64,000 nucleotides of DNA, from assembly GCF_055900595.2 (NCBI RefSeq), contig NZ_CM148325.1. One strand, given 5' to 3'. Both the position numbers and the translations under genes were made by a program. Below the pieces are notes generated by a model, which was given only the letters and a program-made list of their open reading frames with translations, did no database searches and was not told the origin of the DNA. Within the stretch, counting starts at the first letter, position 1, and each line of letters starts with the position of its first letter. Shown one piece after another: positions 30,898 to 33,110 of the stretch.

Positions 30898-30903
30898 CCG
30901 AGG

Positions 30904-30992
30904 TTGCCTGATACGGCGCTTAACGCGTCTTGTCAGGCCTACATTGTACTGAACCCCTGGTCGGATAAAGTGTTTACGCCGCACCCGACAAC
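30904..30992. repeat. REP cluster between trmJ and iscR
   Basis: gcctgatacggcgcttaacgcgtcttgtcaggcctaca plus a partial second unit. Confidence 0.75.
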
Positions 30993-31059
30993 AGGTACAA
31001 ACGCCACGATAAAAAAATGGCACTGAAGGTTAAATACCCGACTAAATCAGTCAAGTAAA

Positions 31060-31166
31060 TAGTTGACCAATTTACTCGGGAATGTCAGACTTGACCCTGC
31101 TATGCAATACCCCCACTTTTACAATAAAAAACCCCGGGCAGGGGCGAGTTTGAGGTGAAGTAAGAC
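31060..31166 (+). promoter_or_regulatory. iscR promoter region with IscR autoregulatory sites
   Basis: AT-rich region with TTGACC motifs at 31063 and 31091; matches the known autorepressed isc promoter from memory; exact site boundaries not resolved. Confidence 0.55.
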
Positions 31167-31655
31167 ATGAGACTGACATCTAAAGGGCGCTATGCCGTGA
31201 CCGCAATGCTTGACGTTGCGCTCAACTCTGAAGCGGGCCCGGTACCGTTGGCTGATATTTCCGAACGTCAGGGAATTTCCCTTTCTTATCTGGAACAACT
31301 GTTTTCCCGTCTGCGTAAAAATGGTCTGGTTTCCAGCGTACGCGGACCAGGCGGTGGTTATCTGTTAGGCAAAGATGCCAGCAGCATCGCCGTTGGCGAA
31401 GTGATTAGCGCCGTTGACGAATCTGTAGATGCCACCCGTTGTCAGGGTAAAGGCGGCTGCCAGGGGGGCGATAAATGCCTGACCCATGCGCTGTGGCGTG
31501 ATTTGAGCGACCGCCTCACCGGTTTTCTCAACAACATTACTTTAGGCGAACTGGTTAATAACCAGGAAGTGCTGGATGTATCTGGTCGTCAGCATACTCA
31601 CGACGCGCCACGCACCCGCACACAAGACGCGATCGACGTTAAGTTACGCGCTTAA
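31167..31655 (+). CDS. iscR: Fe-S cluster regulator IscR (Rrf2 family)
   Basis: 162 aa; cluster ligands in [16 protein letters not shown]. Confidence 0.96.
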
Positions 31656-31664
31656 TTTAACCGT

Positions 31665-31800
31665 CCTGTTTCGTGTTGCATCTGCGTTGACTGTACATAC
31701 TCACTCCGGTCACTTACTTATGTAAGCTCCCGGAGATTCGTAAGTTTGTCAACTTGCTGAAACCCGAAACAGTTAGGTTAAAGATAACAAGATATTAGAA
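31665..31800. repeat. ERIC-like element inside the iscR-iscS intergenic region
   Basis: 31698-31741 tactcactccggtcacttacttatgtaagctcccggagattcg matches the conserved ERIC central inverted repeat; outer boundaries are approximate. Confidence 0.6.
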
Positions 31801-31895
31801 TCAGGCCGGGGCGTCTCGCGCTCCGTAAACACGGTCGTACATCCAGCCGGTAGCCTGGTTCCTTGCATTGAGTGATGTACGGAGTTTATAGAGCA

Positions 31896-33110
31896 ATGAA
31901 ATTACCGATTTATCTCGACTACTCCGCAACCACGCCGGTGGACCCGCGTGTTGCCGAGAAAATGATGCAGTTTATGACGATGGACGGAACCTTTGGTAAC
32001 CCGGCCTCCCGTTCTCACCGTTTCGGCTGGCAGGCTGAAGAAGCGGTAGATATCGCTCGTAATCAGATTGCCGATCTGGTTGGCGCTGATCCGCGTGAAA
32101 TTGTCTTTACCTCTGGTGCTACCGAATCTGACAACCTGGCGATCAAAGGTGCTGCTAACTTTTATCAGAAAAAAGGCAAGCACATCATCACCAGCAAAAC
32201 CGAACACAAAGCGGTACTGGATACCTGCCGTCAACTGGAGCGCGAAGGTTTTGAAGTCACTTACCTGGCACCGCAGCGTAACGGTATTATCGACCTGAAA
32301 GAACTCGAAGCAGCGATGCGTGATGACACCATCCTTGTTTCCATCATGCACGTAAATAACGAAATCGGCGTGGTGCAGGATATCGCGGCTATCGGTGAAA
32401 TGTGCCGTGCTCGTGGCATTATCTATCACGTTGATGCAACCCAGAGCGTGGGCAAACTGCCTATCGACCTGAGCCAGTTGAAAGTTGACCTGATGTCTTT
32501 CTCCGGTCACAAAATCTACGGCCCGAAAGGTATCGGTGCGCTGTATGTGCGTCGTAAACCGCGCGTACGTATCGAAGCACAAATGCACGGCGGCGGTCAC
32601 GAGCGCGGTATGCGTTCCGGTACTCTGCCTGTTCACCAGATCGTCGGTATGGGCGAAGCCTATCGCATCGCAAAAGAAGAGATGGCGACCGAGATGGAAC
32701 GTCTGCGCGGCCTGCGTAACCGTCTGTGGAACGGCATCAAAGATATCGAAGAAGTTTACCTGAACGGTGACCTGGAACACGGTGCGCCGAACATTCTCAA
32801 CGTCAGCTTTAATTACGTTGAAGGTGAGTCGCTGATTATGGCGCTGAAAGACCTTGCGGTTTCTTCCGGTTCTGCCTGTACGTCAGCAAGCCTCGAACCG
32901 TCCTACGTGCTGCGCGCGCTGGGGCTGAACGACGAGCTGGCACATAGCTCTATCCGTTTCTCTTTAGGTCGTTTTACTACTGAAGAAGAGATCGACTACA
33001 CCATCGAGTTAGTTCGTAAATCCATCGGTCGTCTGCGTGACCTTTCTCCGCTGTGGGAAATGTACAAGCAGGGCGTGGATCTGAACAGCATCGAATGGGC
33101 ACATCATTAA
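31896..33110 (+). CDS. iscS: cysteine desulfurase
   Basis: 404 aa from the ATG at 31896 ([14 protein letters not shown]); PLP-lysine SGHK; active-site SSGSACTS. Confidence 0.96.

Follow-up and report, generated by a model that had tools for sequence, protein, structure and literature searches.

The window analysed here, a stretch of 64,000 nucleotides from contig NZ_CM148325.1 (assembly GCF_055900595.2), carries suhB, trmJ, iscR, iscS, iscU, iscA, hscB and hscA in the gene order of Escherichia coli. The TAA stop codon of iscR (31653-31655) is separated from iscS by a spacer of 240 nt (31656-31895), exactly as delimited in the initial annotation, which also expected a shorter spacer in K-12; this is correct, the spacer of K-12 MG1655 being 111 nt long. 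Alignment with K-12 places 129 extra bases directly 3' of the iscR TAA and shows that, from 31785 on, the window is collinear with the entire K-12 spacer. When alleles are compared, 125 bp of this segment (31656-31780) are missing from a rare 115-nt allele. The features of the spacer and of its two flanking genes are the following:

31167..31655, + strand, iscR coding sequence (from the list of open reading frames and its translation; the same gene is annotated iscR in E. coli genomes)
31656..31784, + strand, extra DNA relative to the common K-12-type allele, 129 bp (K-12 alignment and comparison of the spacer across alleles)
31656..31782, + strand, full-length diverged ERIC/IRU repeat, 127 bp (nhmmer profile and alignments to other copies)
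31656..31680, + strand, left terminal inverted repeat of the ERIC, 25 nt, 80% complementary, forming the basal helices of the minimum free energy (MFE) hairpin
31698..31741, + strand, ERIC central core, with 36 of the 44 consensus positions matched
31758..31782, + strand, right terminal inverted repeat of the ERIC, with an A/U-rich 3' end
31783..31803, + strand, A/U-rich linker from the ERIC hairpin to the iscRS structure, GAUAACAAGAUAUUAGAAUC, unpaired probability of about 0.5 in the folds
31785..31894, + strand, iscRS "iscR stability element" (Rfam RF01517; cmscan 117.8 bits for a gathering score of 40, E = 1.9e-31)
31868..31899, + strand, predicted RyhB pairing region over the Shine-Dalgarno sequence and start codon of iscS (RNAduplex), identical to K-12
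31896..33110, + strand, iscS coding sequence, with its ATG at 31896

The extra DNA was assigned to the ERIC (IRU) family with an nhmmer profile built on five other copies, those of yajO-dxs, aceF-lpdA and ybhI-ybhJ, one from an integrative element and the iscX-pepB copy of this window, the iscR copy being excluded. Positions 7-133 of this model match 31656-31782 end to end (E = 8.6e-24, 81.6 bits), and the ERIC assignment proposed from the core thus withstands a proper alignment. The element was also aligned with the yajO-dxs, aceF-lpdA, ybhI-ybhJ, iscX-pepB and Yersinia copies, and shares 65-69% identity with the other copies examined. Its unit length of 127 bp (31656-31782) is that of the family, for which two papers give a canonical length of about 127 bp (PMC2229807, PMC3184786). 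The same sources describe ERICs as having 5'-TA-3' at both termini and as generating a TA target-site duplication (PMC2229807, PMC3184786); the termini of the present copy are TT...AA and not TA...TA, and no intact target duplication is left.

The core was described in the initial annotation as near-perfect, which is overstated: a core does occupy 31698-31741, but it matches the consensus at 36 of 44 positions and a search with the 44-nt core at up to 3 mismatches gives no match for the iscR-iscS copy, the classical core being here made of the ERIC1R and ERIC2 primer sequences. By the same measure, the number of core mismatches over 44 positions is 2 in the yajO-dxs copy, 3 in aceF-lpdA, 0 in ybhI-ybhJ, 2 in the integrative-element copy and 6 in iscX-pepB. 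Relative to the classical ERIC1R/ERIC2 orientation, the core is reverse-complemented on the + strand, the strand of mRNA sense. Half of the eight differences in the core correspond to two compensatory stem pairs (CCCCAG/CTGGGG changed into CUCCGG/CCGGAG), and two more, by eye, also preserve pairing. With 17 private changes, the iscR-iscS copy is the farthest from the consensus among the copies examined. It shares with the ERIC/IRU family its length of 127 bp, a full-length homology, a central inverted repeat in diverged form, long imperfect terminal inverted repeats, the folding into a single long hairpin, an extragenic position inside a transcription unit and the occurrence of several copies per genome (a distant-mode search gives a median of 7 matching sites for each E. 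coli genome), but differs by its unusual divergence, its TT...AA termini and its lack of a close E. coli paralog. The family was reportedly described by Sharples and Lloyd in 1990 and by Hulton et al. in 1991. The iscR-iscS stretch bears no annotation of the repeat in E. coli records, and the literature searched contained no description of an ERIC or of any other repeat within the iscR-iscS spacer; the element is an unannotated copy of a well-known repeat family.

As an RNA, the element is predicted to form a stable hairpin (MFE of -46.1 kcal/mol, z = -5.4), none of 200 shuffled sequences folding as well. An inverted-repeat search located the arms of the core at 31704-17 and 31722-35; together with the terminal inverted repeats and the iscRS element at 31785-31894, they account for the further palindromic sequence that had been perceived in the spacer. 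Covariation over nine ERIC copies bears on the same hairpin, both sides having changed in 21 of its 44 pairs, and the proportion of paired cells amounts to 83% over these copies versus 24-42% with the partners slid. The base of the hairpin starts 1 nt after the iscR stop codon, a position in which the left repeat would lie within reach of a ribosome terminating at this stop.

For sRNA-driven differential decay within an operon, the iscR-iscS spacer serves as a textbook example. According to a 2025 paper by the laboratory behind the original description of the mechanism, RyhB leads to the cleavage of iscRSUA while the iscR part is unaffected, and the accumulation of iscR is due to a strong secondary structure of the iscR-iscS intergenic region (PMC12533949, citing Desnoyers 2009). 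This stabilising function was assigned in K-12, whose spacer has no ERIC. In the window, the RF01517 match covers positions 1-110 of the 110 positions of the model and is the intact counterpart of the entire K-12 spacer; it is confined to 31785-31894, the ERIC segment (31656-31784) giving no RF01517 match. The predicted fold of iscRS is that of K-12, in both the MFE and the centroid structures, and the element is present in both filled and ERIC-free strains. Over the final 30 nt leading up to and surrounding the iscS start, the window does not differ from K-12. There, at 31868-31899, the best predicted RyhB duplex reaches -24.7 kcal/mol versus -13.4 kcal/mol at the best site within the ERIC (RNAduplex), these values being for the core region of RyhB alone, as the energy of the whole-RyhB duplex is implausible. 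The initial annotation rightly placed the repeat within the iscR-iscS spacer of iscRSUA, ahead of the start of iscS and of the predicted RyhB pairing region. The ERIC shares with RF01517 the same spacer and transcript, and both are structured RNA located 3' of iscR, but the ERIC is a separate and unrelated module lying upstream, and the function was defined in a strain devoid of it. We hold with high confidence that the spacer is composed of an ERIC copy followed by an intact module of the K-12 type.

Some variation was observed within the iscRS element itself. The upper stem and the loop of its first hairpin (31810-31826) vary with pairing kept, being GGGGCGUCUCGCGCUCC here, GGAGUGCUAAAUACUCC in K-12 and GGAGUGUUUAGCGCUCC in GN02050, and these variants occur on filled and empty alleles alike, which suggests recombination within the spacer. 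The outermost helix of the Rfam alignment (31792-31796 with 31882-31886), in which the linker (AUAUU here, AAUUC in K-12) is matched with GAGUU at the Shine-Dalgarno sequence of iscS, forms all of its five pairs in K-12 but has two non-canonical ones among the five here. This linker variant is common to the filled alleles of E. coli and Citrobacter. Over the whole 31783-31803 linker, comparison of the alleles also shows a sequence unlike that of empty alleles.

The two modules appear to fold independently of each other. When the entire spacer is folded, the MFE and centroid structures both show the ERIC hairpin and iscRS as adjacent units. A partition function was computed on 31600-31930, with and without the 129 bp: pairs of the ERIC hairpin have a mean probability of 0.84, and the probability that an ERIC base pairs outside the element is 0.039. 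The pair probability of iscRS is 0.67 with the ERIC and 0.67 without it, the accessibility of the RyhB site is essentially unchanged (0.34 with versus 0.29 without), and that of the Shine-Dalgarno/AUG region is 0.40 in both cases. On these thermodynamic grounds, the predicted folds show the ERIC as an insert insulated from the iscRS element.

The filled allele was found in 489 of 5,426 complete E. coli genomes (9.0%), nearly all the others having a spacer 129 bp shorter; the ERIC is thus absent from 91% of E. coli genomes. Strains with the filled allele include the reference strain ATCC 8739, O26:H11 str. 11368, several O111 strains, porcine ETEC and many commensals, and their alleles are nearly identical, 417 of the 489 being at least 99% identical to the window copy. 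A rare third allele of 115 nt (TAA-AAGA-TAAAAAG...) was retrieved from about ten E. coli genomes, of farm and soil isolates, and from E. albertii. It equals the filled allele minus exactly 125 bp, the gain expected from a 127-bp element duplicating TA, although no intact duplication remains. Contigs encoding the exact IscR of the window, collapsed by their neighbouring proteins, have spacers of 111 nt and 115 nt, a comparison that is uninformative as to filled alleles. No paralog above 80% identity to the iscR-iscS ERIC was detected in the 5,426 E. coli genomes, the best matches elsewhere reaching 60-80%.

Outside E. coli, genomes encoding relatives of IscR were scanned (80 genomes listed, a thin sample of Enterobacterales lacking Salmonella, Shigella, E. 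fergusonii and Klebsiella pneumoniae). In Citrobacter werkmanii, the spacer is 242 nt long and contains an ERIC directly after the TAA, with the same junction and orientation as in the window, followed by a nearly similar linker (AAAGATAATAAGATATTAGAATCAGG in C. werkmanii, AAAGATAACAAGATATTAGAATCAGG in the window). The two ERICs are 74% identical and share 10 derived positions, defined as those differing from the majority of other ERICs, although such bases are not independent of each other in a palindrome. Between the two copies, 8 pairs have changed on both sides in a compensatory way. Within the C. freundii complex, 9 of 10 contigs encoding one same IscR protein are empty, with a 112-nt spacer. 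The tenth is JBEHAK010000001.1 (L099 1393-1585), where a 193-nt spacer holds an ERIC that has kept both arms without its central ~49 bp, core included. The site is thus polymorphic in both E. coli and Citrobacter. A scan of metagenomes for an ERIC core located about 100 nt upstream of an iscRS core returned two contigs, both with the E. coli filled allele, and no intermediate or donor lineage.

The 14-nt linker (AAGATATTAG in filled alleles, AAGTATTCAG in empty ones) was considered as a marker of a haplotype shared across genera; this idea was dropped as weak, since the stretch is rich in A/T, easily acquires indels and looks alike across many genera. In Pluralibacter, Pseudocitrobacter, Superficieibacter, Enterobacter sp. 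and Shimwellia (L008, L010, L011, L012, L015, L019), unrelated short G+C-rich palindromes were noticed by eye between the iscR stop and iscRS, which gives the position 3' of the iscR stop the look of a general hot spot where hairpins insert in Enterobacteriaceae.

The initial annotation suspected a strain-specific insertion and regarded a spacer identical in all reference E. coli as contrary to it. The spacer is indeed polymorphic, as the 489 filled genomes demonstrate, but the term "strain-specific" is misleading. The lack of a close paralog, the occurrence in many unrelated strains and the counterpart in C. werkmanii point to an old element with presence/absence variation. An old, orthologous origin, by one insertion shared with Citrobacter and followed by losses or by exchange among lineages, is on sequence comparison the rather likely scenario. 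The case for orthology with the Citrobacter copy is weakened by the low complexity of the A/T-rich linker, by the TT...AA termini and by the non-independence of palindrome bases, and independent insertions at a favoured site in both genera may be an alternative to the single old insertion. A recent, strain-specific transposition of an active ERIC, possibly independent in Escherichia and Citrobacter, would agree with the presence/absence polymorphism, with the near identity of 417 of the 489 filled alleles and with a filled allele that equals the 115-nt allele plus 125 bp, as left by a 127-bp element with duplicated TA. It is nevertheless very unlikely, considering that no source copy exceeds 80% identity in the 5,426 E. 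coli genomes, that the copy is the most diverged of those examined, that it shares derived bases with the Citrobacter copy at the same junction, and that its termini are TT/AA and not an intact TA duplication.

In the overall explanation of the locus that we consider probable, the 129 extra bp are a diverged yet complete ERIC/IRU element, downstream of which the iscRS stability element and the translation-initiation region of iscS have been left intact. Given its position within the operon, and with neither promoter-like nor terminator-like sites found in its sequence, the ERIC would be transcribed together with iscRSUA. The divergent fates of iscR and iscSUA under RyhB would still be governed by RF01517 and by RyhB pairing at the start of iscS, with the ERIC mainly a passenger and, at most, a second stable hairpin directly 3' of iscR. 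When RyhB triggers the loss of iscSUA, or when the transcript is cut within the 31783-31803 linker, this hairpin could put a further obstacle in the way of 3'-to-5' exonucleases at the iscR end, and the stability of the iscR fragment would then equal or exceed that in K-12. Such a neutral or mildly stabilising role, as the folding models suggest, is somewhat favoured over its opposite, given the modular folds, the persistence of both alleles and the 91% of genomes that lack the element. The one experimental precedent, in Yersinia, counts against it by analogy, as its direction is opposite: stop-adjacent ERICs lower their upstream transcripts there.

A stronger role was proposed in the initial annotation, where the repeat itself was suggested to confer stability on the iscR fragment once RyhB has induced cleavage. 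So stable a hairpin immediately following iscR might in principle stop 3' exonucleases, but the stabilising function was assigned to a K-12-type structure, in a 111-nt spacer without ERIC, and RF01517 is present and intact downstream of the ERIC at 31785-31894. Because the function was defined in the ERIC-free K-12 and its module is retained here, the ERIC is not the element to which that role is assigned; as the sole stabiliser it is already contradicted, 91% of E. coli genomes lack it, and the proposal is left with a very low probability. Another reading is that the ERIC polymorphism acts as a natural switch retuning the RyhB-controlled IscR:IscSUA ratio, through the second 3' barrier or through a translation-coupled entry of RNase E. 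We regard it as quite unlikely; if true, IscR homeostasis under iron limitation would differ heritably in some 9% of E. coli, EHEC O26 and O111 among them, and selection, not drift, would account for both alleles recurring in Escherichia and in Citrobacter.

The element could also act in the opposite direction, as a destabiliser comparable to those described in Yersinia. By analogy, ribosomes at the iscR stop would melt the left arm and expose the right arm and the linker (~31765-31803) to RNase E, the iscRS protective structure would be cut off, and the iscR mRNA would fall relative to iscSUA. In Yersinia, ERICs adjacent to stop codons lower upstream transcripts (De Gregorio 2005, as reported in PMC2229807 and PMC3184786, which also describe the mechanism). 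The present copy has the corresponding position, 1 nt after the iscR TAA and inside the iscRSUA operon with which it is presumably co-transcribed, and its right arm and linker are A/U-rich. In Yersinia, De Gregorio and colleagues (2005) reportedly considered that terminating ribosomes keep the hairpin open and thereby expose an RNase E site in the right arm. The orientation of the iscR copy relative to transcription is that of the stop-adjacent E. coli ERICs of iscX and ybhI and the opposite of that of the non-adjacent aceF-lpdA and dxs-yajO copies, a pattern that fits the orientation bias reported for Yersinia, although five E. coli copies are too few for a test. The window copy thus resembles the "B-oriented" Yersinia ERICs in lying directly after a stop codon in an operon, the B label being given here by relative orientation and not by its original definition, but it differs from them in that a dedicated protective element, RF01517, follows the ERIC, which is absent from the Yersinia cases. 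After a cut, moreover, the refolded ERIC hairpin would remain at the 3' end of iscR, and the RNase E site is here putative only; we thus judge a destabilising effect unlikely.

Intercistronic palindromes of another type, the REP/BIME repeats, are also transcribed within operons and could set a differential stability of cistrons, but they belong to a repeat family other than ERIC. They are said to protect upstream mRNA from 3' exonucleases, for example in malE-malF, as reported by Higgins et al. in 1982 and Newbury et al. in 1987. The REP-derived naRNA4 family of Rfam has no match in 31656-31784, its matches being restricted to 30900-31022 in the trmJ-iscR spacer.

An independent function of the element, as a small RNA or antisense gene, an intrinsic terminator or attenuator, or a small ORF, has only a negligible probability. 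It could be evoked from weak Rfam matches to the sRNA families V_AS5 (22.3 bits), RmaA (20.1 bits) and CssrA (15.9 bits) and from a 49-aa ORF (31576-31725) that overlaps the ERIC. These scores are however far below the respective gathering scores of 96, 57 and 93, and the same families match the canonical iscX-pepB ERIC better, which indicates that they reflect ERIC content. The element has neither a promoter-like site nor a U-tract terminator, and the 49-aa ORF, which runs out of iscR in another frame, is without support. The terminator, promoter and sRNA readings were consequently rejected, given the lack of signals and the sub-threshold Rfam scores. The three families, V_AS5 of Vibrio, CssrA of Shigella and RmaA of Erwinia, match both ERICs of the window on the - strand (31660-31782 and 36893-37017), below their gathering scores; V_AS5 reaches 44.9 bits on the canonical copy against 22.3 bits on the iscR copy. 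They appear to contain ERIC-like sequence.

The interest of the element lies only in its position beside a well-studied RNA switch and in a polymorphism that is directly testable. The model of differential decay was built on K-12, which has no ERIC at this site, while about one E. coli genome in 11 has a 127-nt hairpin between the iscR stop and the stability element. The filled allele provides a natural variant for testing the robustness of the mechanism of iscR stability, as well as the effect of an ERIC on mRNA fate in E. coli as compared with the Yersinia report. If the repeat has no effect, it would keep its value for the study of ERIC evolution and of differences in ERIC-PCR bands between strains.

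Other repeats surround the isc genes in this window. A second and more canonical ERIC (36888-37021, + strand, nhmmer E = 1.6e-39, 6/44 core mismatches) overlaps the iscX stop codon (36889-36891) and precedes pepB, in the same orientation as the iscR-iscS copy; the isc-hsc-fdx-iscX region thus has an ERIC directly after two of its stop codons. Upstream of iscR, the matches to naRNA4 at 30900-31022 are weak. The trmJ-iscR spacer in which they lie (30898-31166) measures 269 bp here and 451 bp in K-12, and is built of tandem units of ~91 bp, each a REP pair (BIME), of which K-12 has three and the window one.
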